Assembly (NCBI RefSeq): GCF_964194155.1
Contig: NC_135889.1
Location: forward strand, 58,280,001 to 58,344,000
Direction: 5' to 3'
Length of the DNA: 64,000 nt
Origin: Cetorhinus maximus
Taxonomy: Eukaryota
Shown here: piece after piece, positions 15,447 to 57,300 of the stretch
How the letters are laid out: each line of letters starts with the position of its first letter
How positions within the stretch are numbered: position 1 is the first letter of the stretch
Program-made: the position numbers and the translations under genes
The notes under the pieces: generated by a model
The model's input: the letters and a program-made list of their open reading frames with translations, nothing else
Databases searched by the model: none
Told to the model about the DNA's origin: nothing

Positions 15447-17861
15447 CACAAGTCTGCAGCAGTCCTTGAGGTTATGAGGCAAAAGACAATAATGGTGAAA
15501 CATTAGGAACTCATAATTCAGCGTGTAAAACATAAAACGGCATCCCATAAATAGAATCTAATATCATGTCCCATACCAGGATTTGCTTCTTTCCTTCTTT
15601 TATGAATTACTACTTTACGAGACAATTAATAAGCTGCTGAAACGTAAAGCAAATTATTTGACTACTTCTGGAAGACTTTTATAATTTTACAAGGTGTTTA
15701 TGTGCTGGCGCCTTCCTGAGTTCCGAGGAATTAGCTTCGACTTGTAAACCCGGGCTCTTGGATTGACTATTTTCAAAAATTGTAGAAAATATTTATAGTT
15801 CAAACGGTGCATAAATTATTGCTGTTTGGAATTAATATTTTATTCATTAATATTTCAATATTTAATGCATTACTTATCTATTAATACCTACTACAGACTT
15901 TGATTCTTTTATAAATATGTCATTTTGATTTTTAACAAGACGCAATTACATAGCAGTTATGAGATGTCACATCATATGGAAAACAATGAGTTTTATGCGG
16001 TGGTTTCATTATTCTGTAGACTCAAAACAGTGGAAGTCAAAGAACGTTAAAAATGTCCCAGTCATGCTTGATATGAGCGGACTTCGGTGGGACGCACAGT
16101 GCTATTCCAGCTGGCTTCACTGATTGAGGCCATTTTTATAATGGTGAGAAACAAAAAGGCCCTCTCAAAAAGAACGAAAATACCATAGTCACAGGCGACT
16201 TATTCGCCTGCAGCATTTGCTGGGGGTACAGACCGTTTTATTCTGTGATCGAGACAGTGTTACACAAGACATGATGGATAGGACCAGTTCCAAAAGCTGA
16301 AAAATCAACGAAGTGTTCCCTCGCCATTGTTGGTTTCTTTTTCTTCAACGTAAGTGAGGTTTGTGTGAGGCGAATGTGCTGCTTTCTGTTACATCTTTCT
16401 GTTTTATGACAGAGGGCAGGAAGTTTAGTTAAAGTATAACTAGCACCTATTCAATCTTTTTGTTCTAATTAAAACAGAGAAATAAGCAAGTCAGCATTTT
16501 ACATCTTCATTCTGCTGCTTACATCGGCTTTAGCTTATGCAGCAGTCTGCAAAACAACACATATTACTGGATAAGATTATCTTTTTGGAACATGTATGTG
16601 AAAAAAAATCATCACACTAAACTAAACTAAAACAAAAAATACAGAGAAGGAAAGCGTGTTTAGCCTTTACTAACGGCCAGCCTTTCTTAAAGTTAATAAA
16701 CGTTGATAATGTAAGAATCGATTTGAAAGAATGGAGATCAGATCCCCTGTAGCTGCAATAATAGCTGTTTAAATATACTATATTACTCATAAACTATTTC
16801 AAAGGCCATATTTTTCCCAATTTGTTTCTACACAGACATATTTATATGCTGTTTTTTCGACCCTAACACAAAGCTGCTAGTTATTCCTTACTTATTTGAG
16901 AGTGTATTATTAAATCCTCGCAATCTCTCGACCAAAGACTTCTTAAAAGTATGTATCTAACATAGCGAGGATACTTCCCAATAAGTCTATGTGTGCATGA
17001 AGTGAGGGGCTCAGCATTAAAGCCAAGGGTTTTTGACTGAAGCATGGCACCTTGTGCTCCGAGTGAGGTTGCCTAAGCTATTTGTTAAACCAGGAGGTTA
17101 TTTCGGTGTCTGGAATTAAATGATCAAAACGCGGATTAAAACAAATCACTGTGAAACATATTTGAAACTTTACACGAAAATGATTGGCTAGCATTTTAAA
17201 TTTTAAGTACAATACCTAGTCTGCAAAATCATTTAAATAAAACACATTCCCGTATAAACCACCACAACTATTGGACGTATGACTTATCTGCTACTATATC
17301 ACGTCACAAATAGATTTTCGATTCATTTAGAAAAAGCTTTCAGCCATACAAGGCTTGACATTATAATGAAATATGAGGTTTGTGATCTGCGGCCTCCAAA
17401 GTAGCAGTCAGGCACACGTGCACATTTCAGCTGTTCCTTTAAGAAAAATGTCAATATTTTGTTTTCCTGCTCTATGGTGTTCGTTTCTATGTGTTTCACT
17501 GCATTTTATTTTCTTCTGTTATTCTGTTTTCATCTCCCATCCATGCACGCCATTTTAGTTTAATAATTTTGGCATTACACTGCTGTCCTTTACTTAGCTA
17601 TTTATCTGAAATTTAATTACACTTCTGTTCATTCCCCACCCCCTCTGCCCATCTAATCTGCGTTATGTGTAAGAGATAAGGAAGTAACTCAGTATTATTT
17701 ACTGCCATGGGATCTGAACCTACGCCATTGCAGCCAGCCTCCTCGATTGTAGTGGATTTGAAGGCACTATCTTCAGAATATCAAAACTAACATTAATATT
17801 AAGGTATTGTGAAAAGATTGTGGTGAAGCAGCAGATATGGTTCAGAAACACCAACTGCTTG

Positions 17862-17905
17862 TGAACTCTGCTTGAACCTAAATCGCAGCCATGGGCCATA
17901 AATCA
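17862..17905 (-). promoter_or_regulatory. DR5 retinoic acid response element upstream of HoxD3, with an adjacent Pbx/Hox site
   Basis: Minus strand GGTTCA agcag AGTTCA (17878-17862); TGATTTATGG at 17905-17896. Matches the known conserved Hox3-Hox4 intergenic DR5. Confidence 0.85.
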
Positions 17906-20900
17906 TTTGGACAATGGTCAACTGTTTCTGCGTTCATCTTTCAGATCTTTCTTACCTTACATGTTTTCTAAATGCAAGGGTGCATCACCTAATACAAAGA
18001 TTTGATAAGTAACACCTTGTTATGGACCATCACCCCTTTATTTTTGGTGTTTCCGAATACATTAACTGCAATCGCGGGGCCCATGGCGAAAAACAACTCA
18101 ACAAATTATTAAGTACTTTTGGCCAACATGAATGGCAAGTCTTTCTGCAACACTAAGGAAAACTAGAAGAGTGAAGGAAGTAACTCTTTTCGAGTCAAAA
18201 CAATTAACTAAATTAGAGTGAAGGAAGTACATGCACCATGAAAGGATTCAAGTCAATGAGTTAATTTTCCATTTTTTCCGTTCTCGTAGGTTTCAAACTC
18301 GCGTAGAAAGCGGTGTTACAAAAGTTAAACTGCTTTAATACCGACTTAAGAAAATAGTAAAGCTACATCGTTAGACATGTTTTTTCCTGTGTGTTCTGGC
18401 TCGTTATTTTATGCCACATGTACTGCTTTATTTGCCCAAGGCCAGACCACTGAAAGACAGTTTCCACCATTTAAATAGTAATCAAATAATTGCTTTCAGT
18501 TTTCTTTTATTTTTCAAGTTAATCTTAACAGAGTAGTCTAAGAATGTAAAACCCATCTATAAAAGTGGGCAGTTCGTTGTTATTAAGAAACTAGAGCCCT
18601 CACAGTGCATATCAATGCACCTGTCATTGTGTGCTACGCAAAATTTATGACTGCTAGTGCTATGGTCGTAAACGCTTCACTACAGAATGAAAAGAAAAAC
18701 ACTTTCCAAAGACTTGCTATCTTCAGAAGTGTAAAACAGCTACAGCGTAGGAGGAAAGACCAGAAAAAGAATGCCCATACTCCACAAGTTTCTTATCTAC
18801 GAGGCGTTTCGCCAGCTCTTGCAGGATTTTATATAAGCCATTGAAAGTTCCCTGGCAATTTGAAACACGGTTCAGACCACAAACTTTGCACATCTAGCAG
18901 ATGCGCATGGCTCGAGCGGGAGGAACTAAAATTTGTCTTTGATAAACGTCAGCTGGGAGCCAAATTTGAAATCAAAGGTTTGATTTCAGGTATGAAGTGG
19001 GGAGCAAAAGGGGAACAAACGGGGGCGGAAAAAAAGCTTTTCTCTTCTACTCGGTGTCTGGCAGGCATGTTCAACGTAATTTTATTCGTTATATATGTCA
19101 GCTATTTTAAACTGTAATCAATTCTACACATTTTCAGAACTTGCTTAACCATATGGTATATTTTGTTTAAAAAAAACCCGACTGAAATATTTGTTGCCTT
19201 CAGCCATCGCTCTCCAGAAGAAGCAGATTATTCTTGGGACATAGCAATGTTGATTGTGTTTATACTTTGAGGATCAGTTCTGGCAAAGGGATCTGGTTGG
19301 ATCTGTACATCTGGTCATATTTCAGCTTGGATCACTTAATCTCTTCCAGATCTGCGTTTGATGCCTAAACTGTAGACATCGAAGAACTTTGATACAAAAT
19401 TGGCATGATATGCCTTCTTTGGAAAAATAATCCAGGGTTTGCAGAGAAAGGCAGCAGGATCCTATCACTAAGCCAAGATGCACCAAGGTTCAGCTGTTAA
19501 CTTACTTTTAATATAAGCTACTTCATTCCATATAGAGCAAGTGGGATAAACGCGCTCATTGTAGACTATAAAAGTTGAATGAATTGTGCAGTCCTTGTCT
19601 CCAATTCACGATCCCTTATTGTGATTTATCCAGAAATACGTCTCTATTATATAACCCAATTAATTTGCAAACTAGGTACAATATTTGGCCCGAGCAAATG
19701 TGACGATATTTCGTGGAAGTTTGGTTTGTGTTAAAAGAAAAGGAGGTGGAAACAAATATATGAAGTTGAAACTGAGTGAGAAAGAATAAAGATCGATGTT
19801 GGTAGATCTGAAGTAAAGTAACTGGACGGAATGGTACAGCTCAAATGAATCATTTCCAATGCTTCATAAAATGTACTCCCTTCTAGATTGAAAGAAACGC
19901 ACACAGATATACATAATGGCTATAAACATACCTCATTCTGGGCATTAAGATTTGCCATAAAGTGATTAACTTATAACAATTTAGTTATCTCCCGTTTTCA
20001 GTTGTATCGGTTCTTTTGAAGGCTTTAATGATCTGCTAGCCAGACGTGTTAACACGATGCAGCCCAATTTATCAGAATTACAAAATATTTTACAAAAGCA
20101 TTGGTTCTAACGGAGTGGAAAGCAGATTCACAGCCGCTTAGCACGAGAATAGGCGCAAATGAAGAAACCCAGAGATCACATCCCTGCCTGTTTAAGGAAT
20201 GTATTTCATTTCTGCTCTATGTGTTCCAGCAGTTAAGTTATAAAACCTTGAACTAATTCCCCATGGGTAAATCTTAGTTACTTATTGAGCGCACGGAGTC
20301 CATCAGAACACCAAATTCTGCTACAAGCGAAAAGGAGTGAAAAGTATAGAAACTCACCACAGATTTTTTTTCTATCTGCTTTTCGTTGGATTGGATTTGG
20401 AATCTGTCCAGATTGACCAGAGGGCACTGGTTTTGTTCTGAAAGCAGAAAATGTAATGAAAAACTTTCATACGCACTAATACTATTTCTCTATATCCTAT
20501 ATATTTTAGATCATCTTCCTGACTGCTATCAAACAAAGAAAGGAAAGGACCTTGCAACAGGCCTCGCAGATCCATTGTTGTTCTTGTAAAAAATGTATTT
20601 GCTCTGTTATTTACATAAAATGTGTAAAAAGAACATGTTTTCTTGCGAGCTTTAATCAAATGACTACGTAGTTTGGCTACGTTTTTTTTAAAAAAAGGAA
20701 AGAAATATCACTCTATTTGCTCCAGAAATTAGAAATGTGATGCTACTAAATATCAATGTTGTATGATTAATGAGGTGAGTTGCATTGTCAGTGAATGTAA
20801 AAAGAAACAACGGAAGAACGGGTTAAATAAATTTAAAGTCGGTAAAGATTAGGATAGGTAATTTGACTTCTTTTTTTAAAAAATGACCAAGAATGCCTCC

Positions 20901-23900
20901 CGAGAATCTGAATACCCAATAACAAATCATTTATTTCGAGTGATTTTCATAATTCAAGTTGTTATTGCGGAAACAAAGCTATTAATAGCATCAAGCATTT
21001 CAGATCGGAACTTCCATTTAGAGTACCAGAAATGTGCCTCGAGGGTGGCCTTATTACCCAATGAGCATGATATTTTGGGGCCTACTGCACTTGGTAGCAA
21101 AATAGATCGTTCTGTGGTGGCCTTTTAATGGAAAATGGGCCTGAACGGAGTATTAAATAAAAATCACAATTTTATATCATGCAGCCTTTTGGTACCCTCG
21201 AACTCACTCCAAAGCACTATTCGCCAGCAAACTGACGGTATTAACATTCTTCATAATAAAAATGAAAGTATTTATTTCTTTTCTTGTTGACGTTTAAATA
21301 TGTGCGCTTAAGCAAAAACTACTACCGTTGTCGAGCATTTTATAGCCAGCTAACATAACAATACAAATATGGAGGCTTGCAAGAAAGGGCCTGGCGCCAT
21401 ATATAAAACTCATGAATAATGTATTGTATTGACAGGCGGTTATGCTTTGTCATTGGGGTACCAAACATCATGTAATATTTTATATCGATTAGGCAGAATC
21501 ATAATGCTCGCATAAAGAGCTTGGTTATACAAAAAGTAACTAAAATGCAATAATACAGCACGGCCGGAGCCTCCAAACAGGCTCTAAACTCCAAATCAAT
21601 GTGCAAGAGGCAGATGGAAGGTGAAGGGAAGCTGAAGTCAGTCAGAAACTGCATTTTAGTGAATGTTATATCAATTCAAAGCACATGCTTAAATTTGAAA
21701 ATATATTTAAGAAAAAGAGCAACTGTGGCAGATCAGTGGGACAAAGAAATCGTCGTCATTAGCTGACAATATGTAAGAATCATAAGCCTTTGAAATGACC
21801 TTTGGCTTGTACAGCAATAACTCACCACTTAATGAACAACCAACGGAAGCGCCTCCACTACCTCACAATACAGCCCATCACACAACTTCACCATGGCTTT
21901 TCTATCCCTCTTTAATCCCACTAAGACGCAGCACTTTACAAACTAGTCTCACCAACTTGTGTCGATATAATTTGAAGTTAGAAGAGGATCCAAATCACAG
22001 TCGGCAAGACATCGTGTCCTCGGTCCAATGCCTCCCACCATAATGCGTGTAATGTATTCACGTGGCCATACGTCAATTTAAAAGGTTTTATTTCTCAGTA
22101 ATCACTGGAAGTAAGTTAAGTATTTGCAGGGTAAAGTCGCTACTTTCCAGAAAGCAAGGACAGTCGACAAGCTTTAAACACTTGGTTGCTCTAAAACAAT
22201 TACTGATAACTTAAGTGTTCTCAGCTATGATCTGGACGGTAAGTTTTTAAACGTCTTATTAATTTCGCAGCAGTGTAAGACGCTCTCACAATACCATCCT
22301 GAAAGGTATAAACAGATTGTCCATTAACAGATTTTAGCAGAATGAAAACGTCGAAAAGTTTTGAAAACTTTTTTTTGTCACTTTCCTAAATTGCTAAATC
22401 GATTTGGTAGAAAGGCTTGCGATTACGTGTTTATTACTTTTACTGTCTACCAAAACATAGTGGAACACAATCTATGAGACCAAGGCAGCTACTGTACGTG
22501 GTGCCTGAAAAGTTTGAACTTTTTCCAGGGATGAGAAGTTTTAAAGCCACACAAACAAGGGAACGTTGATCGTTACCATGACGTGTGCTGGAGAGAGGTT
22601 TATTGAAATTTTAGGTGAAGTTATAAGTGAGTGGCCCCATCGAGCAAAATGAAATGCTACTCGGAGTAATTGGATTCAGCTGACTAACATGGCAGCCCAG
22701 CAGCTTCGAGGCATGCAGCAATGAAAAATGCTCCACTCAAAAGTTTTTACCGAGCAAAGCACATATGCAGACGGCGAAACAACTATTATACCTGTGGATA
22801 TTTTGAGAATATGCCCAAATCTGCATACAAACAGCGTGACTTTGGACAATTTATATCTATACGTTTTCATTAAGAAAAAAGAAACGCCTTCCATTATTAA
22901 TATTAAGATTACAGCGAATTACATTAACTTAAAATGGAATTTCCAAAAGAAACAACTTAAATCACATTCCCGATCTTACCTTAGATCAGTGTCAAACCAG
23001 CGTGTTATGTACAGTAATAGCATTTAAGATATGTCTAAAAGTAGAAATTATAATTATTTGTGTTTTAAAACTGCAAAATAGTACAGCTGTATTCTTGAAA
23101 GCAATTAATAAAAGTAATTGAATGCGTTTCTAAAACTGAAAGGGAAAAAGACAAGTTAACATTAAAAATGTAAATTCCACTGAAACGGGGTCGCCTAGAT
23201 GCCAGGATTTAAACAGGGTTATTTGGTTTTTAAAGATTTACCCAAGCTGGTTAACAGTGAAGTGCATAACTACAAAAATATTGAATCAATTGCAGAGACT
23301 ATCTTCTGACACGATTGAGTTAAAATAATATTCGATATTTAATATTTAAATACATTTAAAAATACGGATGTAGTGATTTCCTTGAAATTCACAGATTGTT
23401 TTTCCTTGAACGAGAATAACATTAATTGAGAAATAATTTATACAGGCTGCTGCAATAACTTTAGCCCGCAATATATTTCTGAAGCGCATAAATCACAGAA
23501 GACTGCAGCCTGACGATAAGCTAGAGACAACAAATTAATGTGATTTACGATCTAAGTTTGCTAGTGACAGTTTGAAAAGTTCCCTGGGTTTCTGTGCCTT
23601 TTTATTTCGTTTTCCTTTTACATAAAGCTGCAGAATCAGCTAAAATACAGCCACCAGACAAATCTGGGACTGCTCTGGTTTGTCCGATCTAACCTTTCTC
23701 AAATTGCGCACTTTCGTGAAAGAGCAAATGTTTTTTTTCTCTCTATAAATCGCCATTCTTTGCTACCAAATCGTTTTTCTGATTTGCCACTGAAATGGAA
23801 ACAATACACGAGTTTGTTTCAGAATTTCATACAATTTGGCATGAATAATATGCCCTCTTGCTGAAGGCATTATCCAAACCTACTGCTAAAGGTTGCATAT

Positions 23901-29068: not shown

Positions 29069-29938
29069 GATTATGAACTATAGCTTAGCAATAACATGGG
29101 CCAGCGCAAAGCACCTACATGACAGGATGCTGTGTCCACTCGGTGTCGAAAATGTGCCTCCTTTAATTACAAAATGAATAATGACGAAATTATGCAGACT
29201 TTATCCACAATAAGGATGCAAGAGTGCTTGAGAATAGAATTATTTACAACTGCATAACTGGATGTGTTTGTTTTCTAATATTCTTTTTATTGTTTTACTA
29301 TTATGCATGTTGCCATGGAATTTAAGTGGCATGAGTAGAATTGAATTTTGGCTTAACAAACAAATATGGACCATCATTCGACACAAACGCCAACCGCTGC
29401 AACGCGATTTCGAGTATTTTGAGCATAAATGTGGCAAAACTATATCTTTATGGCGCATACGTGGAGAAAAAATTTAGTGGGAATCTCAATGCATATATTA
29501 GAAGATGACTGTTTGGGAGTGTTTCTGAACGTTTTCTTTATTCAAGCATCATAGAAAAGGGAAGCAGGAACATATTGAGTTGAAAATAAGCAACGTTTGA
29601 AGCTGAGTAAATCAACAACTTCTATGTTCTGTCATTAGAGATAAAGTGTAGGCAACGGCTGAAATGTCACTTCTGCAAAGGTGGAGGGACAGGAGAGAAG
29701 TGGAGTTTAGAGGCTCCATGCATTATATTAAAATCTGTATCTCCTGAGAAAGGATGCAGAAGTTACCCCTGCAGAAATTGGATTAGTTCATACGTGAGAA
29801 ACTATTTCAACTGGCTTTAACTAGAGGGTGTCTGTGTTAAAACACATAGAAAAAGCGAAGGGTAGGATTGAGTCCAAAAGGTCAAGGGTTTAGAGGTCAG
29901 TCCTCCAGGCTGAAATACAGCTAATCGAATAGAAAATT

Positions 29939-29955
29939 TGTCCTCTTGGTGAACC
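29939..29955 (-). promoter_or_regulatory. DR5 RARE of the Hox4 3' neural enhancer
   Basis: Minus strand GGTTCA ccaag AGGACA, 2.5 kb 3' of the HoxD4 stop; same half-sites as the known Hoxd4/Hoxa4 3' RARE. Confidence 0.8.
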
Positions 29956-34961: not shown

Positions 34962-35048
34962 GCATCGACCATAGACTCCCCTAGAAACGAATCTGTGACC
35001 GAAACATCACACAAATTCGGTTCTACAGGGTATATATAGACGACGGGT
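34962..35048 (-). ncRNA. MIR10B: microRNA miR-10b precursor (mature 5p 35032-35010; 3p arm about 34996-34975)
   Basis: Minus strand reads TACCCTGTAGAACCGAATTTGTG (the miR-10b-5p sequence), a loop, then the complementary arm ACAGATTCGTTTCTAGGGGAGT; canonical position between Hox4 and Hox5. Hairpin ends approximate. Confidence 0.96.
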
Positions 35049-36666
35049 TGCAAACAAATTCGGTGACTAGTTACAATATGGGAAAGTAGTTTAAAAAGCT
35101 GCGGTTGCAAGCGGACTCCAAGGAGTTAATGGCGTGTAATATTAACAAATAAGAGAATAAAATTCAGACAAAGCGATTGCTAATAAGTTTAATTGCTTAG
35201 CCATTGAAAAATAATAGAAGTCGTTCCTTTATATCTGAGGTGATAGCAAAGATTTCTATGTGCGTTGTTCGGCAGTGGCAGCAGCATGAATCAGCGCGGA
35301 GCTGGTTTGTGCATATAGTCTACAAGGCAGAAGTTATTATTTGTTACTGTGCTGATGAACCCTTCGTATTTCACAGAGATTTTATAGGAAACAGTTTGTA
35401 CCGATCCGCTCCAGCTAACATTACTAAGTGCCCCAGCGTGAATCAATAATTGCTCCAGATGCTAATAATTTGAACTCACCACTAACAAACCGCAGGATGT
35501 TACAACAAATATCGCCCGGCCTAAACAATTCCTAAATCTAATCAAAAGCAAGTTATACATGATAGCACAAATATTGGTTTATTTCAAAGTGTTTTCCACT
35601 CACTGCTACTTTCATAAAATGATAGCAGCCCAGGAAAATAACGATTGTTTGTTCTATTCTAATCTCTCCCACTTCCTAAAAACTGGATCAAATAATACTG
35701 CTGGCAGTATGCTTCAAAATCTAATTACCACCAGACAATTGGATCGCCATATGCAGGAAAAATATATACAATTTAATCTGCCAACTAACCAGGATTCCCT
35801 TTGCCTTGAACATGTCTAAGGTGGTTTCTAAACTCTAGTGCATTGTAGGTTCCTTACTTTGCTCTCCCCACTGTCCCTGTTGTGTGTTAAAGGCTGAAGG
35901 GCACGGGGTCAGACTGAAATCATTTACAAACACATCGGAAAGTTGCATTATTATTTTCACTTTAGCGAGCGCCACACGCCTGACCTTTTCTAAGTGTGTG
36001 AATCTTGCCTAACTAACTATTCAGCTAAGTTTACAGTAATTCTGTCCTTATGTCTCTAGTTTAAAAAGCAGGCACACGAGAGACAGACTGGGAACAATTA
36101 TATACGTACGCCAGCGAAAAAAAGTAAGTGTATTCAACAGTACAAAGATTACACTTAAATGTTTTGCGATGCACTGATTAACAAAGTAACAGTGAAACTG
36201 TACTTTCTGACAGTAAATGGGAGTGTTCACTTGTTTATTTCTCTGCTGTTTCTGTCGTGCACTACAAAGGTTTCGGTTTATCTACGTTTTATTGCAGGGC
36301 AGTCAAACTAATCCTCTTTAAATGTTCAACCTCGTATTTAATCCCCGAGTAAATTGCTGTTTTGAATATTTTACCTCTTGTAAAACAAATCCATAAAGTC
36401 GCTAAAAGTTTGATCTTATTTACCTGTGATTTTTTTTCCTTTACCCCAGTGCATTAGGAAAGAAAAAAGCTAAACAGTTTTCGACAACCAATGACGCCAA
36501 CGAATGCACCAGCAGTGATTTCTGCTTTTAAAAGCCTTTTTGCAAAGAAAATCCCAGATATCGTTACATCATCCGATAATTGGGAAGCCAAATCTCTTTA
36601 CTGTTCAAATTATCGCACATAGTGAAGCTGATTGGTGCTACACATTTTAATATTTGTTAGACGCTG

Positions 36667-36683
36667 TGACCTGCATTTCACCT
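36667..36683 (-). promoter_or_regulatory. DR5 RARE 5' of HoxD4/miR-10b
   Basis: Minus strand AGGTGA aatgc AGGTCA, the sequence I recall for the mammalian Hoxd4 5' RARE, about 3 kb upstream of the ATG. Confidence 0.85.
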
Positions 36684-39600: not shown

Positions 39601-42275
39601 GTTCTCGCCGGTTGCAGTGAATGTTCTTACTGCGTTTATCAACACTGAAAATGCTATTATTTTCAGCAGATATCTGGAGAAATGAAAATACATTAAGCAG
39701 CACATTGCTAGCCATTGTTCTGTATTCCTATTCCAAATTGTTCGGAATGTGATCGATTAGAAAACACTTGGGACTCTAGTGACACCGATAACTGAACACA
39801 TGAGCTAGCAGTTTTACACAGCCTCGGCTAGTTAATAGAGGAGGTTCAGCAAAGAATATGCAGTAAATTCTTCATTAAGCTTGCAGAATTATTCCTTAAA
39901 TTAGGTCATATCTCCCAAGTACTTTTTCAATCAAACTCGCAGATTACACAGAAACAATTTGTATCCTATACATAGCTTTGGTTCTCCGACCTCCGATTTT
40001 TAAAAAAAATCGGTTTTCAATGTATGAAAATGTATGAAGCAGGATTGTGTAGTTAACATCTTTCAGAGCTGGCTGAAGAAAATGACTTATCTAATACACG
40101 TGATCAAACAGTAAGAAAGCCCCTTGTTTTTGTGAAGAACCTTACTAACGCTTGGTTAAAAGATTGGATAAAATATGAGTTTATTTCTGATTTTTTCATT
40201 TAACTGTTTAATACAATTGTGACGCACAACACTCTTCATGTCTAAGCTTTTGAAATTATAGTTGGAAACTTAGCAGCATGTATAATTCATAGTTTGTTTC
40301 GAATATTGCAATATTATTTTCATAACTGAACACATATTACATATCATATAACCAGTAGCTGTTGAAATTGCACTCACGTTGTACTGTGATTTCTGCTTTT
40401 TGGCTGGCCAAGAAATAGTGCATGCGCCCAAGGGCCCCGAATGACATCAGGTGTCACGCATTCATCAGCTCTGTTACCGATCAGAAATAACTTACTTGCT
40501 GCTTTTCCAGCGCAAAGGTACTAGGACACTAGGACACTGCCAATTCATAGCCGTGGAACAGGATAGCTTGCTTCTTGGTGTCACTTTCCACAGGCCCTCT
40601 CAAAAACACTAACCATCTGTACTTGTCTGCTCTTAACCTAATATATGATGTGAATTATATTTTGGCTTGTCAACTCCCCTAACCATAAAACAAAGTTTAA
40701 TGACATCACGTGCCCGTCTATAGCCAGTCAGGAACCGGCTCTGTGGCGTCCATATAAATAACCCTTAAACTTTAAAACTTTTATTCACTAAAGACAGTCA
40801 TGTTCATCGAAATGTTCTCTCAGTAATATAAAGCTAAACATCTGAGTACCCAGAGGACGCCAGCTTTGGAGAATAAGTTGCCTTTACTTTAAAACGCAGT
40901 TTGGGCAGTTCTTATGCAACAACGGGGAACTATTAAATTTGGTAAGTGTAAATACACTACATGTATACGTGACCGATAGCTTCTGAACTATAGTGAAATA
41001 GAAATGGGTCGATTGAAAAGGAAAACAATAAGTCATTTTAACAGTTACAGCTTCCTATGACTTTGTTTCCCTATTTCTATCGCTTTAATAGTCAATTATT
41101 TCCTGCTGCTATAGTCTAAACGTTGGGTAAAAATGTATTCTCAGTGCAGTTAACCTGGTAAATTATTTCATGCAATGGAATCTAATACCAAGTTGTTCAT
41201 AAGTTCCATTGCTCTTCCTATCAAGCCCCACCAATGGAGGTATATATATATATTTCCAAATATTTATGTTAATATCCATTAATAAAAGCAAACTCGTATT
41301 ATACTTCCATTAAATAACAGTTTATCAAGCTATCTTTTGAAAATGAACGTGTCTGTCGTCTAGGTGCTGACGTTTCTGAAGTATGACTCATGTTCTTTTT
41401 TCAATAAAGTCATTGGAATAAGTATAAGTTCGGCCAGCAGTTCTTGCCAATAATAATATTTTTTTTAAATTCTGAAAACGTTCAAAGACGGTTCAGCCGA
41501 AGGAACGTTTATGAGTTCTGAAACATTGGGGCTAGTATTAGATGAACTTGGATGTCAAAGGAATAGATGCAAAGTGAGAAAGTGAAATGGCGTTAGGTTC
41601 TATCACAAGTCACCAATTGTCAGTGTCTTTATTCACCAATTGGAGTTAAACAAAACGCCAGGTGAAACGTTTATTGATAAAACTGAATTTATTTCAACGC
41701 TGTCGGCAAAAAACACCACTTCTTTCATGTACATAGGACAAAGCCAGACATTTAAACATTATATATGTACAGAATATACATCACAAGATACAGCACGGTG
41801 ACACTCGTGCCATAAACATTCCAAAGGATAATCAAACAAAAAAAATCACTTTTGAAGTAAAAAGAGATGAAAGAGACAATATGTATCTATGTTTATAAAA
41901 CATTTTTAAATTAGAGTCTTAGCGAAGCTATAATCCGGTATAGAATTAGTTTGTTCAGCAACCAGATATACAGCACAATTCCATTCTGTTCTCCGAGACA
42001 AATGGCTTGCTTGGCTACATTACGTCGGTTGACCTCTTTTTTACTCTCTTACGATCTAAATTTAGGCATGGATGTTATCATCAATATATAAAAACATGAT
42101 TTAACATATGTTGATGACAACTGATAAATTGTACTCTTCTTTATAAATGAACCCACATGAGAGCAACGTATTGTATCTCATAGAGAAGCATTTAATGTAG
42201 CCAAGCAACCTTTCCTATTGCAACTTAAAAAATCATCTGGATAGCAATATTATATAGCCAGTTAGATGAAACAAG

Positions 42276-46644: not shown

Positions 46645-47050
46645 GCATGCACACACACATACAAATAAACACACACCCGTACAGCACACATATACACATA
46701 ATCACACACACAGAGACACACATGCAGACACACACACACATAAACATATACACATACAGACACACATGCACATACAGAGACACACACATGAACACACATA
46801 AACACACCCAAGCAGACACACATACACATAGACAAGCATACACACACGCGCACATACAGGCACATACACACGTACACGCATATACATACATACAGGCACA
46901 CATACAGACAGGCACGCACACATACATACACATAAACACACACGCATACAGACACCTGCACATATAGGCATACACACACGTACACACATACACATAAACA
47001 CACGCACATACACATAAACTTACATAAACACACATACTCATAAACACACA
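46645..47050. repeat. Degenerate (CA)n/(CATA)n microsatellite-like tract
   Basis: About 400 bp of interrupted CACA/CATA/TACA units; produces spurious H/T- and C/V-rich ORFs. Confidence 0.95.
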
Positions 47051-50000
47051 GAGTGACGTTCCTGTTGAGTATTTTAGCACTTTTAGCAAAATTACGGATT
47101 ACGTGATCATGAAGAGCATAAATTTAAAAAATCGATCTTAAAAATTGTAACTACCATTGAATTAGTAAATATGCCCTTTCTGGCTATTATATTTATAATG
47201 GTGTTTATTTACGCTCAGTTCTCTTTTTACATGTGTTTGTACCAGATTATGTTTCTCAAGAAAAAAATTTGCAAATCACAACTCAGCCCTTCCATGTATT
47301 ATAAAAAGCTCAGAGAGCATAGCCATCGCATAACCCCAGATAACCAGTTTGAGTTTATCGAAAATTAGACCTAAACATATATTCGTCTCGTTTAATTATT
47401 TAACTGAGCCGATAAGAGCTTAATTCATAAAACCCGTATAAGAACTGTTGTCGGTGCCATTAACACATAGGAATGAACTTGGACGATGCATTGAGAATTA
47501 TATGAAAGCATAATATGAACACAATTAATGACTTGTTGTGTCAGAATTAAGGTAAAAATGAAACTGCTTTCTCAATAGGAAAAACAACACTACCTCTCCT
47601 AATCTGATACAACTCGAGTATGGATATATTTCTGTTTGTGGCTCCGGCCTGAAAATAAACAATTAATATCGAAACATTTACAATATTATAAATAATAATG
47701 ATTTAATTGCAAATGTTACGATAGCTTCACACATTTATTTGATTCTGGCAACGCTTTGCAATTTTAGTTTAAGCAACCACTGTTTCACTTTGACAAGGTA
47801 CCTGTTGGTCAATGCGATAAATACAGGCTCATGTGGGTCAGCCGTTTTTAAATATTTCTTTCATTTGCAAATAATTTCAGATGCTAAATAATGAATCAAT
47901 GACACTATGAGTAGACGCCGCACAGATGATCAAGCTACCATTTTATCTATTTCCAATAAAAACCTAGAGACTAAAAGACGAACGAATGCACAGACATGTG
48001 CTAGATATGACAATTTCAAGTGGATGTAATTACAGGCTCCCTTATTCAACTCTGATGTTAAATGGAACAACTGATGAGCAATCTTTTCGGAATATATAAT
48101 CACTGGAAATATATACAAACAAATGCTTTGGAAAAATATAACAATAATAGACATACTTATTGATAAATTCATCTTTTGCTAACAGTAATTCGCATGCCCT
48201 TCCCCTGTGCATATTTCTGCAGGAAGGTGTTGCAACTAAGTAGAAACAGGAAAGGAGAGGGGGGGCCGGGGGGGAGGTGGTAAAGGAACCCGATGTTTCT
48301 CTAGTGACCATTATGCTTTATGTGAATGCACTTAACATTGGATTGGAGTTGTTTGGACCAAATTAAAAACATTCCCAGTTTACAGGACTTTAGGATTTTT
48401 TAATGTATAAAATATGCAAGCCAATTTGGGTACAACTTGTTGCAGTAAATGAATCATCAGATGGGCGAGCTGATATTATTTGAAATTTTGCAAAACCAAG
48501 TCGCAGTTAAAATAGCTACTGAATCCCACCTCATTACTGGCACATTGAAACCACAGTCTGGTGTCGACTGCAGGGTAATTATTGTGAGAGTACCACTCAT
48601 TTGTGCAAAGTTCTGTCACGTGGTTAGTTATCATTAAAATGTTGAAACGCTCCTCCAAAATGCTGATCCTCTCTATGATTGCGGCACGGAATCATTCCGA
48701 TCATTAACACAAGATGCATCACTCATCTCTACAATTTACCCTCAGCGGAAAGGAGCCCAACTAATGTCCTCGTCTGTAAGATACCAAATGCGGGGAACCA
48801 CATACTGGCAATAACAGAATAAATACACCAATCACCAGCAGTTGATCGGATATCGCTCCCGCAAAATAACAGCAGCAATCGTATTGCTATTGGCAACAAT
48901 AATCATTATCCCATGAGTAAACTACACAATCTGATTAATCTCTGCTCTGGATCATATGAACAAATGTCAGCTGTCTTGTGGCGAACCTTCCATATCAAAG
49001 ATAGACACGAATCGCAACTCCCCGTCCTATTGCGGGAAATAAATATTTAATTAATCTGCGCCACAATCACCATTTGAGTTCAAATGACCACCCGGACCTG
49101 GTTTGGTTTGTACCGTTTGCAAATCTGTCTTGCTGTTTGCTCATTTATGCCGAATACCCCCTCGACCTCCCAAACAGTTGCCTGGAACTCAACCAACGAA
49201 ACAAGCGCCATTCCCTCCTAGGTACAGCAGCAGAGCATGGAAAACACAGCACTTACCAGGTTCAGGGCGCTTCCCCAGAACAGTAACCAGTTGGATGTTG
49301 TATTCCATTTCTGATTTTTTTCGATTAATAAAGGAACTTTTTTTAAAAAGTAAAGCGAAAATTGAAGGGTAAATGAAAGACTGTAAACAGACGTCAGAGG
49401 TCTGTGAGAGTGATCAGGTTGCTAAATCCCAGCATGGGTCGAATGACTTCCTCATAGTTGTACGGAAAAGGACTGAGCAGCGCGAATACAGCGGAAAGTG
49501 TCCTTTTTTTGCAAGCAGCTGGCGTCAAATACCAACGACAAAAGCAGGCAAGGGGAGATACTGACAGAAAAGACGATTTGAGACGAGTTAGCAGCGGAAT
49601 GCAGTGAAATATTCACAAGGGAAATCATGAAAAGGCCATGAACGCAGTTACTAGATTCACATGACCAACGAGAGCCAATAGGAAGGCAGCCTCCGCCGTA
49701 AAAGGTCCATTACAAAGTTGTAAATTTTCTTCAAACAAAAAGGAATTCGCAGCAATTCCTTGCGGATTTCACAAGTGCAGCTCGCAAGCGCCATGTTTCC
49801 TTTAACGAGTTCCTTGCTGCAGCTATTTGTTATAATGTGTATTGTAACGAACGCCTTAACCAACTATATAAGCGGAAATGCCTCGACAACATAAAGAGGA
49901 ACATCTCCCATTGCAGTGGGCACTCCGCAGCCCAGCAATCAAATCACTACAATTTGTTTGTGCATCCATACTTTGTTAATTCATGGTTCAAACACGTCAT

Positions 50001-50481: not shown

Positions 50482-52375
50482 TATTCGGCGTGAATGAAAA
50501 CCATTTAAATCAGTTCGTTCGCTAATCTCTCCCTTCACTGACGGCGAGCGGGCTCGGCAACTAACGTTACACCGTGTTAAATTCACGGCAACCTCATTCA
50601 TTTGCAGAAAAAAAGATGATGGCCGGTAGATATTAGATATCCATATTTTCCCCTGAACCCCCCATGCTTTTCGCGGGTTTAATTCTAGTGAAAGCCTTTG
50701 GTGTGATGCTTTGAACTGATCTTACGGGGGAAACCAGAACAGCGTAACCAGATACGTGCCGGTATCTCATTTTTAATTTATGAAAAGGATATAACTGCTA
50801 GAAACGTTGCCTCAAAATAAAATATATTCTGAACAAAACGTTCAACAGTGCAAGCTTCCCTTACTGTGCATGGTCTGGGGTGGGGTGCTGTTGGAGAGTG
50901 CGCGGTGGAGGAATTTCTGCAGAGGTTTAAAAACCCCAGAGGAACGGTGTCAGAGGCAAAAGGAAGCTTTTACAAGGATTCAGGAGGAGAGTTTTTAATG
51001 TATGTTTGGCATTTTTTTGACCTCCATTGTTTGTTAAAAATCTATGGCAGTAACGCCCAAGTCAAAGTACGAATTCGACCCAAAGCCTCGTCATTCTGTG
51101 CACCATATTTCAGTGAAAACGCGCGATTCCTACCATCTAATAAGACTATTAATAAGGCTCAGCTCTGCTGTGATTGTACATTCACTTTAGTGACCGCTAT
51201 TTCGGCCAAGACACGTATTTGACCGTCCAATTTGTAAATGGGAGCAGATGCAAAAAAAACGTGTTTATTTCATTCTTCGTTTTAGAACGCTTTAATAATG
51301 GATTTAATGAAACTTTAAATCGGTTATGTTTTCTGAAAAAGGAACGCAATACACATGTATTGAAAAAAAAAACATCGGGTTATTATAAAGCAGGGGAGGG
51401 TTGTGAAAAACTGTTAATTTTGGGCAGAGAACTCCCCTCCGAAAGGAGAAAGCAATTTCAAAAATAAGCACTCTGGTATTAATTTATTTAGAGTTGATTT
51501 ATTCTGTAAAATTATTTATGTGTTATAATCGGGCACCGATTATGATATTCAATGTAACTTTCAAAATATATTTGCATTAAAATAAAATGCGATGCCATTG
51601 AGATTAGAATATAGAAAATTGAAAATATATAGCTCAATGAACAAAACTGGTATTTCCAAACTTCGCTGTGTCCGTCTTGAATTAGTTAATTGCTGTTTCA
51701 CACGTCAAACTACCTGATAGAGTGAGGATATTGTTGGAGTATGACCCTTGGATATGTAACATATAATTCTATTCGATTACAAGTTTGAGCTGTTCCGTGG
51801 AGCAGCGATGGTCGTGGGAATAGATTCTAGAGTCCGCTGGCAAAATGTATACTGTTATCTTTAGTTCTGCAAATAAACGCGGTCTTTTAATTGTTTGTTT
51901 AACATTTGAAGTACAATATTTGCTTCCCCCCCCCCCCCCCCCCCCCCCCACTTCTAATTGTTTCCTGTTTGCTCGTATCAATATCTTTTCTTGATTCAGG
52001 CTTATCATTGTGCGTAAAGAAAAGGATGGAGATTGAAAATTGCCAATTCCTATGGTTGAGGTTTATCTGCAACATGCCCATCGATCCTTAAACGTGGCTT
52101 GATCGCTGATTAAGGAAAATTTAATGGAAAGTTAGAAGGTTATTCGACAACTGAAGATTCTGCTTTCGCTCCCAACCTTTAAACCAGAGAAGAATAAAAT
52201 GGAGCCCAGAAATCCACAGTTTGTCCAGTGATTTGTAGTATTAGAACTTTTATTGTCGGTTTTACGAGATTTGCTGATATACGTGTACAGTAGACCGCAG
52301 TTAAACACCAAGCACTAACTTTTACAGCGTCGGTTTAGCCACACATGAGCCAGGCATGTGATCTGATTAGCCAAT
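50482..52375 (-). pseudogene. Putative highly decayed HoxD7 relic (promoter/5' UTR, hexapeptide trace, homeobox trace)
   Basis: E-box/CCAAT 52355-52375; Hox7-type leader AATCTCGTAAAACCGACAATAAAA...CTACAAATCA...CAAACTGTG with GTG (52217) where Hox7 genes have ATG; AGAATCTAT (RIY) at 51828-51820; helix-3-like GAACGA...TGGTTTTCA...CGCCGAAT at about 50521-50482. By-eye alignment only; the leader match is much stronger than the coding traces. Confidence 0.5.
51926..51949. repeat. Poly-C homopolymer
   Basis: Uninterrupted C run of about 24 nt. Confidence 0.9.
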
Positions 52376-53000
52376 GGTCATTCGAAAGACTTTTAACTTG
52401 AGGCATAGATAAACTAATATTCTAATCATCAGCTATATCATTAACTTTTATAACTACATATAAAGAATTACGCCATCTTCAGGCTTTTGCATCCATGTAA
52501 CAGGGCGGCGGTGCTGTATGGCAGGCATACACCCTGTGGCCACAGAAACACACAAACACAAATAAAGTACATCTGATTTAACCATAAAGAAAAAATCTCG
52601 AAACAGCCGCAGAAAGCTGGCGAGGGCAGTGATCTAGCCATCTCAGGTGACTCCCACAATACGAGCAGAATGATTTTCTTTTACTACTTGTATTTTCTTT
52701 TGGGATAATAGTAGTTAAATGAAACAAGCACACAATTAAATTTAATCAACATTTATTAATTTAATCACATTCGACCATCATAAAAAGTGACTATTGCTGC
52801 GGAATACCTTGTCATTGGTTTTTTTTTGCTTGTGTTTTATAATATGCTCATCGGAGATAGGTAATGGTTGAGAATTTCCAGCCGCAATACACCACCAATT
52901 ATTTCACACGCACAGTAATTAAGACACATCGTAAGTGCACGTTTTTTTTTCTATCATTAATTAAGTGTGTTCGCAATACATTCCAAATTATCCATTCTAT

Positions 53001-53021: not shown

Positions 53022-53406
53022 TATAATCACATAATGCTAAATAAAATCAGCAAACTAAATCAATCACCATATCATTTCATATTTTCGTCTTATTAAAAAG
53101 CAATAAAATCTTTATTCAAAATGGCTATTTCTTCTGAGATTTTGCCACCTTCCACTTTTAAAGGGAGCTGCAAAACTCTGTACAGGGGTGATCAGTCAAG
53201 GTTGATTGAAAAGGTTAAAATTATGCACACGGGATTTCATTAGAAATAATGTCGAATTAAGGCTCGAAAGAACTTCAAAAACAGGTGGACTGGTTTACAT
53301 AAAACTAGCCATCAACGTGCTGGAGGATTCATTCTGCTCAACACGTTTAACAGTGGAATTAGCACAAACTGAATGACGTTTTGCTTTGAGGCCAAAGGGG
53401 GTAAAG

Positions 53407-54352
53407 TTACTTGGTCTCTTTTTCTGTTGTCTCCTGCTCAGGCTCTTCCTGTTCTTTCTTGACCTCTTCCTCCTCGTCGTCGTTCCGAGAGGTTGGAAAT
53501 TTGTCTTTGTTGTTCTCTTTTTTCCATTTCATTCTCCTATTTTGAAACCAAATCTTCACCTGTCTCTCAGTCAGTCCCAGAGCATGTGAAACCTCGATCC
53601 TCCGCTTTCGAGTTAGATACGGATTGAACAGGAATTCCTTTTCCAGCTCCAGAGTTTGGAATCGGCTGTAAGTCTGTCTTCCTCTGCGTCTACCGGGTGC
53701 TGCTAAAGAACACGAGAATCACAAGAGACAATAAATATCGGATAAAATGCATATACAACCGAATAACGACAGCCTAGGAACAAGAACAGCAAGAACGGTA
53801 ATGGCATGCAAAGAAAGTGGTCCTATAAAAGTAGACAGACTATTATAGACAGCGTTAAACACCTTGGCGATATAACTGAGCAGCAGTAAAACGTGAGATG
53901 GAAGCTAATTCTAATATATCCAAACCTTGAGGTCTCATCCAGGGAAACATTTGAGTAGGAGACGAGTTCTGATTTAAGTGCTCTGGTTCTTCGCCAATAT
54001 TACTGCTAGACGATTTACAGTCAGGATATTGTACCAGATCGGCCTCTTGCTGTGTCGTAAAAATTTGCTGTCTTTGTAAGTTATCGTATCCGTAAAATTT
54101 AGAGGGGTCACCATGACACGTAATTCCACAAGGATTCTGTTGAAAGCCAGCATTAGGAAGTGCAGATGTCCCATGATGGTAAAAATCTTGAACTTGAGCT
54201 GGGTGCTGGAAGCCTGCGCCGCTGCTGGGACCATAGACCACAGCGTGTCTGCTGGTCACGTCTTGTGGAAACCGGCAGTCATAGTAAGTGGGACTTAGTG
54301 CTTCTCCTGGCTTGTACTTGGAGTAGAATGGATTAACAAAATATGAACTCAT
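53407..54352 (-). CDS. HOXD8: Homeobox protein Hox-D8; exon 1 54352-53926, exon 2 53702-53407 (240 aa; alternative acceptor at 53699)
   Basis: [14 protein letters not shown] start, QMFPWMRPQ hexapeptide, donor G|GTTTG, acceptor TTTAG|CAG, homeodomain [66 protein letters not shown]. Confidence 0.95.
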
Positions 54353-57300
54353 CTGTGCAGACTCTAGAATGACCAACGAATATCAACAAAGTAAATGTTA
54401 AACAATGCTGGAGTGATGTTATTGGGTCCCCCGGTCTACAGAGTGCTCATGATGGCAATGCAGGTCCAGTATGCACTGATGCCCGGTGGAACATACTCGC
54501 TAATACTGTAGGTACACAACTGCCTCACTGCTGTGGCTGCTTCACTTTGAAAGCGCAGATCAGTTCTAAGCCAGCTGAGAAGGTCGTTGCCTGCCGTTTA
54601 CAGTCACCGCTTTCGCGGGCAACACCTCTGTGCTGGAAAATGATATTTTTTTAAAAAAATGTAGAGGGCACACTGATCGGGGGAAAAAAAAGGATAACAT
54701 GCGGATTAATATATTCAGCACACTCTCGTTACAATTAGGCGGGCCGCATCACAGAAAACATGAAATACGTGCGCCACTCAGCTGAAGAGAAATGAAGCTG
54801 GCCCGGTTACAGCACAGCAATTAGATTTTAGAACACAACAAGGTGAGATTGGTCTCAAGGTCAAGACATAGTGAGGAGAAAAAGCCGGAAGGCTAAAAGG
54901 CTAAAGTTTGAATTAAGATCAGGGATTATTTTTATTGGCTGTTTCTGTAAATCTTGTTGGATCTGTGTGGGTCTGTCAATCTGTCTGTCTACCCAGCTTA
55001 TATTTACACACATGTATATTTCTATTTACATAATTAAGTATAGCTGACGCATGGATACTTCTGTAAGTTACATATAAACTGTTATCAATCGATAATAATT
55101 CTCACTGGGTTTAAGTAGGCAGCAGATCAACAGAAATCGAACCTTTCTCCCCCCAAAAAATTGCATCAAGCAACATTGTTGTAGTATATACGAGAAAACC
55201 CCATTTACAAAGAGCGCGAAGAAATAGTTACCCTTGCCTCAGATAAAAAAATAGGCTCGCTTGACTGAAACTTCGAGGTTAATTACGAGCTAATGAAAAT
55301 CATGCCTGTGAATACAATTTCCATCATTTCAGCCCTGGCAGACGTCATTGCCGAGAAAGGCAGCTTGCATCTCCAGGCAAACACAAAGTTCGTAGCTTGA
55401 GGTTGAAATTTCATCAAGAAGCCCCACATCGGGAGGAACAGCAAGCCTGAGATGATAGGCGTGCAGCCCTCGAGCTGGTTAGTTTTAGCTGCTGATAGCT
55501 GAATCGCTCATGAATAAAGTGAATCCCAATTTTTTTCCCCCTTCAAGCGACTGTGTTTAAAGTTTAAACAAAAAAAGCTCTTGATCTGTTAAACTTGTAT
55601 TCACCAGTGAACTTTGTCCCTCACGCTTCGGTGGGTGTCTCAACTCTACCGAATGCTGCAGGGAGAGAAAATCAGAAATGTCCTCGCTGGCTGCTTCCAC
55701 TCTTATACTTCAATGAATGCAGAATATGTTCATTCAAAATGAGCCCAAAATGTGCTGCAGGGATATTCCTCTTCAGTCAATTCTCATTTATTTGCATAAA
55801 ACAAAAATAGCCGGGTAAAGAATCACACTTTAAAACGCGTTCTCATTCTTTAATGGAGTGTGCAGCCGTTTGCCCCGTTTTAACTCCATGATAGAAACAA
55901 GACACTAATCGCAATTCACAGCTACATTTTTCGGCAAACCGCGCTTTTCACAATGATGAAAATATTTCATTAATCAGCAATGCGATTGATAGGCTGCGTA
56001 TCAATGTTGCTATGTACATATTTACATATGTAAATTCACTTTTCTGCAAAACTCCATTTCAGCGGAATGCTTACTTCATTTAAGCCAAGTTTGTAAGAAA
56101 GGATAAATGATATGAAGAGAATCTCTCGCTCTGCTGTCCCCTTTTAATACGAAGCATTCAAATCCATTTATTATTTTTAAAAATCTGACCCTCGAGGCTG
56201 GAAAAATTAAATGTACAGCTCGTTATTAATTTAAATATACTTATTAGTCGTGTTTTACGTTTCCTTTTGCATTGTTATCTAAAACGGTTACAGAACCTCT
56301 TTGAATCGAAGGGAAGAGACGCCAGGATCTGAAAGGATAAGTTAACACTTACCGGGGTTATTGAACAATCCTGCAATGAGCGGCAACAAACAAATGTATA
56401 TGATATTTATTGTAATTATGGAGTGTGGGGTACGTGCCTAATGTAAAGCAGCCAAGTGTCTACTTTAAAAACGGCGACAAGTGTTTTTGCCGAAATCTTG
56501 GGAACGGTTTTTTAAAATATTGAAATGGCACCTCCACCGTCACTCTGTAGGTATAATTTAAATTTTAACTTTAGACATTATTCACTTTCTTCTCTCTCGA
56601 ATTTGTAGCCAATTTATTCCGAGACATAGCAATGCAGCGAGCACATGAGAAGTCAAATCAATGTGTCACTTATTTTATAGTTTGAAATTTGTAACTGTAC
56701 TCAAACGCTTGAAAATGTTTCAGAAATCATTGAAAATTATTACAGCATATACCCCGAAAGAATTATTTAAAGGGGAAGATTGTAAAATTGGCCGCTAATG
56801 GGATCTTTAAAAATTGGAGGCCCGACTCTTTTTTGATGATTGATTTTTAGACTGAAATGCACAATAAAATAAACACATGTCTACGCCTGCTAAAGTCGAG
56901 AATTACATAGTAATGCTAAGATTAACTGTAAGTGAGTTTCATTTGTCGTGGTAATGCTACATTGCATTGTAAAATTTCAGTTTTCGTTTCAGAGTAGTGA
57001 TTCTTTAATTAAAATTGAGAAATAAAAAAATCTGACATCCTTATACTCGAAATCTACACCGAATTATCTGGCTATGAGTTTAATGTGCAACTTCAACCAT
57101 TACTCAAGATCATATTTTACACTTTCATTGAAGGAACATCATTGGAACAAAGGAGAATGCAGGCACAAATATGGAGGGTTTTGTGGAAATTAAGTTGCAA
57201 CTGGTGTAAATTGTTTTGAATAACCCTTCATTTTGTTCTCAAAAATCTTTTAATATCGAAAGTCTGTACTATGTAACCATTTAATGATACATTTCCAAAG

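Follow-up and report, generated by a model that had tools for sequence, protein, structure and literature searches.

A probable relic of the HoxD7 promoter and leader in the HoxD cluster of Cetorhinus maximus

Introduction

Can a Hox gene that is missing from living jawed vertebrates still be read in the DNA where it once lay, and if so, which part of it? To our knowledge, HoxD7 and HoxB11 are absent from all living jawed vertebrates, and we know HoxD7 so far only as a gene deduced from duplication history. The stretch of Cetorhinus maximus DNA analysed here (64 000 nucleotides, hereafter the window) raises the question in concrete form. A sequence-only reading of it proposed that the whole outline of HoxD7 is still legible between HoxD8 and HoxD5, with promoter, leader, dead start codon, hexapeptide and homeobox following one another in gene order. 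Every string of letters quoted in that proposal is present in the window where it was placed.

Genome sequences and gene content

Homeoboxes on the minus strand of the window belong to groups 9, 8, 5, 4, 3, 2 and 1, and this gene set is that of a cartilaginous-fish HoxD cluster. D2, D5 and D14 are chondrichthyan features (PMC5054437), and the Hox clusters of chondrichthyans evolve slowly (PMC2746220). Two further Hox clusters occur in the same genome (4.0 Gb), as does a group-8 homeobox on a short contig. Comparisons drew on 130 kb from the A cluster and 240 kb from the B cluster, together with 50 kb outside the window. HoxA7 and HoxB7 of this genome, and not human sequence, served as references, and genes were named from homeodomain sequence together with gene order. 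The short contig (C4582, 12 kb) stops just past its homeobox, which lies at the contig end, is distinct from those of B8 and D8, and is a probable HoxC8 remnant.

Several other elements lie in the window. A miR-10 precursor (34968-35039, minus strand) is found upstream of HoxD4, as expected, and is the sole Rfam match over 33000-56000. Further paralogous conserved non-coding blocks common to the A and B clusters were detected by blastn at 40634-40732, 36642-36683, 29877-29955, 21783-21878 and 17857-17913. Between D2 and D1, on the minus strand, 5355-5465 matches exon 1 of A2/B2 at 73% (blastn E 2e-9) and is possibly a partial duplicate of a Hox2 first exon. The expected HoxD6 slot holds ~400 nt of a degenerate GT-rich repeat (46650-47050), and neither a promoter nor an exon-1 relic was found in that slot with paralogue promoters and first exons as queries.

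A probable group-7 promoter and leader in the HoxD7 slot

When the whole window was compared with clusters A and B by blastn, the interval from D8 to D5 yielded only two blocks, 52315-52220 and 49747-49588. The first matches the A7 and B7 leaders, and a finer aligner extends it to 52383-52215.

52215..52383, minus strand: probable promoter and 5′ leader of the lost HoxD7, homologous to HoxA7/HoxB7
52215..52217, minus strand: GTG at the position of the Hox7 ATG; the alignment runs into the B7 ATG
49588..49747, minus strand: paralogous conserved block with its own CCAAT/E-box module at 49679, matching the A7-A6 and B7-B6 intergenic regions

Local alignment of 52383-52215 (the D7 block) scored 93 with A7 and 73-76 with B7, against a mean of 25-26 and maxima of 39.5 (A7) and 34.5 (B7) in 200 dinucleotide shuffles. 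Identity is 61% with A7 (105/172 columns) and 57% with B7 (98/173), and 68% (114/167) between A7 and B7 themselves. The match is specific to paralogue group 7: in an all-against-all alignment of 19 promoter regions, the block's scores with the two group-7 promoters were 93 and 73, and none of the 16 from other paralogue groups exceeded 28. Across the entire D window, both the A7 and the B7 promoter have this block as their reciprocal best match.

Its position agrees with that assignment. The D7 slot lies between HoxD8 and the 7-6 intergenic block, on the same strand and in the same orientation as the missing paralogue, which bears out the proposed place in gene order. We regard the block as almost certainly a relic of the lost HoxD7 promoter and leader, homologous to Hox7. 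The slot measures 2470 nt, versus 4170 in the A cluster and 4003 in the B cluster, and because it is ~1.5-1.7 kb shorter than these counterparts, deletions have occurred in it.

Similarity to A7 and B7 ends within ~6 nt of the start position; A7 and B7 can be aligned with each other through the entire exon 1 (score 380). From D8 to the downstream 7-6 block, no colinear D-A or D-B block above the null was found beyond the two already named. With paralogue promoters and first exons as queries (8-20 shuffles per test), eight vacant Hox slots were searched (A8, A12, A14, B11, B12, B14, D6 and D7); a promoter is retained at D7 only, and the promoter is the only signal there.

Among live genes, paralogue promoters of groups 2-7 do align; the D8 promoter (54100-54600) gave no alignment with that of B8 (score 18), and one D2-B2 promoter pair also scores low (38).

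The 7-6 intergenic block

The block at 49747-49588 is the downstream anchor of the D7 slot and matches the A7-A6 and B7-B6 intergenic regions at 69-73% identity (blastn E 2e-9 and 2e-14). The H8/7-6 FCS is named for the interval between Hox8/7 and Hox6. Equating the D7 leader with that element, as had been suggested, is doubtful because its name places it in that interval: the leader maps upstream of the A7/B7 ATG, and the other block maps between 7 and 6. Presumably 49747-49588 fits the name better. The term FCS does not occur in PMC2868907 or PMC2746220. Long transcripts of mouse Hoxa5 start from two conserved distal promoters, one of which lies near Hoxa7 and has a 160-bp conserved core (PMC2868907). 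The 49747-49588 block is likely the counterpart of the Hoxa5 D2 distal promoter and, judging by its sequence, likely a start of long D-cluster transcripts.

Motifs inside the block

The columns that the D7 block has in common with A7 and B7 include the following motifs.

52371..52375, minus strand: CCAAT box (ATTGG on the gene strand), identical in A7, B7 and D; predicted NF-Y site
52355..52360, minus strand: E-box 1 (CACATG), 10 bp from the CCAAT box, with equal spacing in A7/B7 and at other live Hox starts; predicted USF-type site
52342..52347, minus strand: E-box 2 (CATGTG; CACGTG in A7 and B7), from the three-way alignment
52305..52311, minus strand: TTGGTGT block, identical in A7, B7 and D
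52254..52268, minus strand: 15-nt leader core CTCGTAAAACCGACA, 15/15 identical in A7, B7 and D

The three-way alignment also retains TATATCA and ACAAATCAC, and we take the leader core to carry a posterior-Hox/Cdx-type site. A CCAAT/E-box pattern, defined after seeing the motif, occurs 24 times in the 484 kb of the three clusters versus 0-6 times in five shuffles. Sixteen of these occurrences lie shortly before mapped live starts, three in the 7-6 block, one in the D7 block and one elsewhere, and the remaining three are 1.2-1.5 kb upstream of Hox1 homeoboxes. We describe as CCAAT/E-box Hox promoters those in which the two motifs are spaced 10-11 bp apart and stand 80-210 nt ahead of the start position, and the D7 block is among them; its module stands at -158, versus -83 to -206 for the 16 matches at live starts. 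The claim that the same CATGTG-N10-CCAAT module (52355-52375) is found at the live Hox genes of this cluster holds for D9, D4, D3 and D2 and probably for D1, but the module was not found at D8 or D5. From these motifs, it is fairly probable that the block has a start-site role.

An element of the same origin might instead have been kept as a shared enhancer-like or RNA-level element, serving HoxD8, HoxD5 or read-through transcripts, and not as a start site. Its best-kept piece, the 15-nt leader core, does lie downstream of the promoter motifs, the block is 1.0 kb past the stop codon of HoxD8 (53409), and the leader has gained an AATAAA at 52254. We consider this unlikely nevertheless, as the block still has the typical CCAAT-10-E-box spacing of Hox starts and two other AATAAA, at 53116 and 52757, are nearer HoxD8.

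Start codon and coding part

Three further features concern what follows the leader.

52015..52214, minus strand: probable former start of exon 1, with at best a weak signal, short of significance, in an anchored joint A7/B7 profile
51799..51837, minus strand: proposed hexapeptide trace, rejected as chance
50482..50584, minus strand: proposed homeobox trace, rejected as chance

The dead start codon stands as it had been described. The GTG at 52217-52215 aligns with the Hox7 ATG, the frame from it stops at codon 13 with an in-frame TAA (52181-52179), and open reading frames from ATGs in the 700 nt after the GTG reach at most 79 aa. Over the first 200 nt the anchored joint A7/B7 profile gave its best score, 4.3 bits (p=0.04 uncorrected, with one of 15 tests below 0.05). 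Anchored exon-1 tests overall gave p 0.04-0.36, with 0.04-0.12 at 60 and 200 columns, and p 0.39-0.83 at the protein level. A planted exon 1 was regained in 93%, 60% and 33% of 60 runs at 0.6, 0.8 and 1.0 substitutions per site. A run of 24 G on the gene strand (51926-51949) lies within the would-be exon 1; it is of low complexity and inflates some scores.

The stretch ADSRIYS, whose R codon is 389 nt past the GTG, had been read as the hexapeptide. The letters are there, but their signal is not above chance. The site reads ADSRIYSHDHRCS versus SNFRIYPWMRNAG in A7, with the invariant YPWM turned into YSHD; its score, -7.0 to 2.7 bits, is exceeded by that of another site within the 300-nt zone and, in all six settings, by a site in 500/500 shuffles of this zone. 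No hexapeptide relic above chance was found in the zone (p 0.91-0.96 over six settings).

The proposed homeobox trace (50584-50482) did not rise above chance in nhmmer, decayed-profile and protein-alignment tests. With two central-Hox profiles, nhmmer gave no match in the D8-D5 interval at E<200. Pairwise Smith-Waterman alignment of A7/B7 exon 1, hexapeptide and homeobox against 53400-49760 gave p 0.095-0.97, the homeobox alignment (p 0.21-0.34) falling at a place other than the proposed one. In scans at three divergences, with homeobox profiles decayed to 0.3-1.0 substitutions per site, p for the zone was 0.10-0.95, and the proposed site was outscored in essentially all shuffled zones (fraction 1.000 of 200 in six settings); with a higher-indel profile it was outscored in 200/200 shuffles in seven settings and 196/200 in one. 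It ranks 4930 of 16132 bins, at 5.8 bits versus 22.6-25.1 for other relics in the genome, and frameshift-aware protein alignment there gave p=0.89-0.94.

Two other candidates were set aside. A high-indel match at 51969 (p=0.025, one of eight settings), beside the G run and not at the proposed site, was treated as low complexity, and a helix-3 look-alike at 51296-51267, as good-looking as the proposed homeobox, was rejected at p 0.21-0.34.

For hexapeptide and homeobox alike, then, coding-trace scores are no better than shuffled controls, the very outcome that the sequence-only reading had named as its refutation, and these two named traces carry no evidence for descent from HoxD7. A planted homeobox was regained in 90 of 100 runs at 0.6 substitutions per site, 46 at 0.8 and 16 at 1.0, in simulations free of large deletions although the D slot is ~1.5-1.7 kb shorter. 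If HoxD7 was lost early, its decay is put at 0.65-0.75 or more, from half the distance between paralogues. The negative result on coding relics is not absolute, because power is 46-90% near the expected divergence, and DNA of the D7 slot may be descended from the coding part of HoxD7, yet not legible.

Homeobox relics elsewhere in the genome

The same pipeline finds a frameshifted Hox14 homeobox upstream of A13 (contig C3, ~133,334,990-133,335,150, minus strand) at 24.7 bits, against a null maximum of 11.6, with protein-level p=0.010 twice. This relic stops at an intron donor that D14 shares and is of a known type, psi-HoxA14 having been reported in elephant shark (PMC3707753). Another frameshifted homeobox relic lies between HoxB10 and HoxB13 (contig C26, ~10,954,500-10,954,680), and group 11 is the best fit of seven profiles. 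First seen at nhmmer E=0.069 and therefore chosen post hoc, it scores 22.6 bits against a null maximum of 13.9 and ranks first of 16132 bins on both strands (next unrelated bin 15.7), with protein-level p of 0.099 and 0.010. The vacant-slot test found no exon 1 and no promoter for it. We put it forward as a candidate psi-HoxB11; no description of a HoxB11 pseudogene was found in the open full-text literature. It lends support to the general idea that in a genome of this kind even very ancient losses of Hox genes can stay readable. In the same test as these two relics, the best homeobox score of the D7 zone is 7.4 bits (p=0.85).

It is very unlikely that the whole gene outline, hexapeptide and homeobox included, is still legible at D7. 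In its favour are the letters with their plausible spacing (389 nt versus 366 and 372 in A7/B7), the faint signal over the first 200 nt past the GTG, and the incomplete power of the tests near an expected divergence of ~0.65-0.75 or more per lineage. But both named sites were outscored in nearly all shuffles and neither is the best in its own zone, several changes plus frameshifts would be needed to reach the most conserved residues (WM; WFQNRR), other relics of this genome reach 22.6-25.1 bits versus 5.8 at D7, and the equally good-looking helix-3 match indicates that such matches arise easily.

Divergence and selection

The JC distance of the D7 block is 0.55 to A7 and 0.65 to B7, and that between A7 and B7 is 0.41; the greater divergence of the block suggests relaxed constraint. 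Fourfold-degenerate sites, an imperfect and near-saturated neutral yardstick, differ between paralogues at 61% (386 sites, pairs with D) and 64% (243 sites, A-B pairs), which leaves 36-39% identity (K2P 1.3-1.5). The block is kept far better than synonymous sites and less well than live promoters. Because its identity (57-61%) is well above the paralogous fourfold-site level and its retention is motif-wise, the D7 promoter and leader have very probably been retained by selection, as the sequence-only reading had supposed.

A neutral relic, its promoter surviving only through slow genome evolution, is hardly probable. Slow decay alone can preserve old sequence, as the frameshifted A14 and B11-like homeoboxes indicate, and chondrichthyan Hox clusters are slow (PMC2746220), but here the promoter scores 93 and exon 1 next to it can no longer be aligned, the conserved columns coincide with motifs, and no promoter is kept in the seven other vacant slots. 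It is extremely improbable that the D cluster received a later copy of the A7 or B7 promoter by insertion or conversion. The block is slightly nearer A7 than B7, but its slot and orientation are exactly syntenic, it has diverged about as far as A has from B, and a search sensitive to close copies only showed no second one in the genome.

Discussion

Our preferred explanation is an orphaned promoter. As far as sequence can tell, 52383-52215 is probably the promoter and leader of the lost HoxD7, selected as a CCAAT/E-box promoter, with the coding part decayed beyond recognition. After cluster duplication, a D7 protein redundant with those of A7 and B7 could have lost its reading frame, and its promoter, if shared and likely serving something else, could not be lost. 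NF-Y and USF-type factors would bind the CCAAT/E-box module, and the promoter would start non-coding or long spliced transcripts running towards HoxD5/D4/D3. We propose such transcripts because upstream promoters produce them in other Hox clusters. Hoxc4-6 are served by one common promoter and polycistronic units include many Hox genes (PMC1831499), and paralogous lncRNA promoters (HOXA-AS3/HOXB-AS3) are conserved to elephant shark (PMC8330917).

A bolder version, which we offer tentatively and somewhat short of calling it probable, has the HoxD7 protein dead before the shark/bony-fish split and its promoter still firing non-coding or long multi-gene transcripts; with the HoxB11-like relic, shark clusters would then keep the physical remains of two lost Hox genes.

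If the D7 block is what it appears to be, it is direct sequence evidence that the D cluster once carried HoxD7. It would show that what survives the death of a Hox gene can be the promoter and leader and not the homeobox. It would also give a testable handle on the intactness of Hox clusters, in which neighbouring genes would share promoters, and would add a new character with which duplications of clusters and losses of genes can be ordered. Among the matches listed from the open full-text literature there was no study of a HoxD7 cluster relic by title; many of those that matched HoxD7 seem to refer to the HOXD70 scoring matrix, and no paper using the name 7-6 FCS was found there. Papers on shark Hox footprints may list the block unnamed.

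Comparison with known systems

NF-Y and USF bind the CCAAT/E-box modules of HOXB4 and HOXB7. Those promoters have the same two motifs at the same 10-bp spacing as the D7 block, but the D7 block is followed by no coding gene, and factor binding and activity there are predicted. The H8/7-6 FCS resembles it as a mid-cluster, conserved, promoter-like block that could start long transcripts. So does Hoxa5 D2 (PMC2868907), but D2 is located in the Hoxa7-Hoxa6 intergenic region, and the D7 leader is 2.5 kb upstream of D2's likely counterpart at 49747-49588.

As remnants of lost genes in their syntenic slots, psi-HoxA14 and psi-HoxB14 of elephant shark (PMC3707753) and psi-HoxD12 of a caecilian (PMC4470032) are similar to D7. 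The A14 relic of the present genome has kept a frameshifted homeobox relic and no promoter, whereas D7 is the reverse, with promoter and leader kept and the coding part illegible. The block is also akin to the paralogous conserved non-coding sequences of Hox clusters (Matsunami et al. 2010, cited in PMC3595034; PMC8330917), which are short and alignable between clusters that duplicated early in vertebrates, and like them it aligns significantly between clusters at a matching position. It differs from them in that it would belong, as proximal promoter and leader, to a named gene that has lost its coding sequence.
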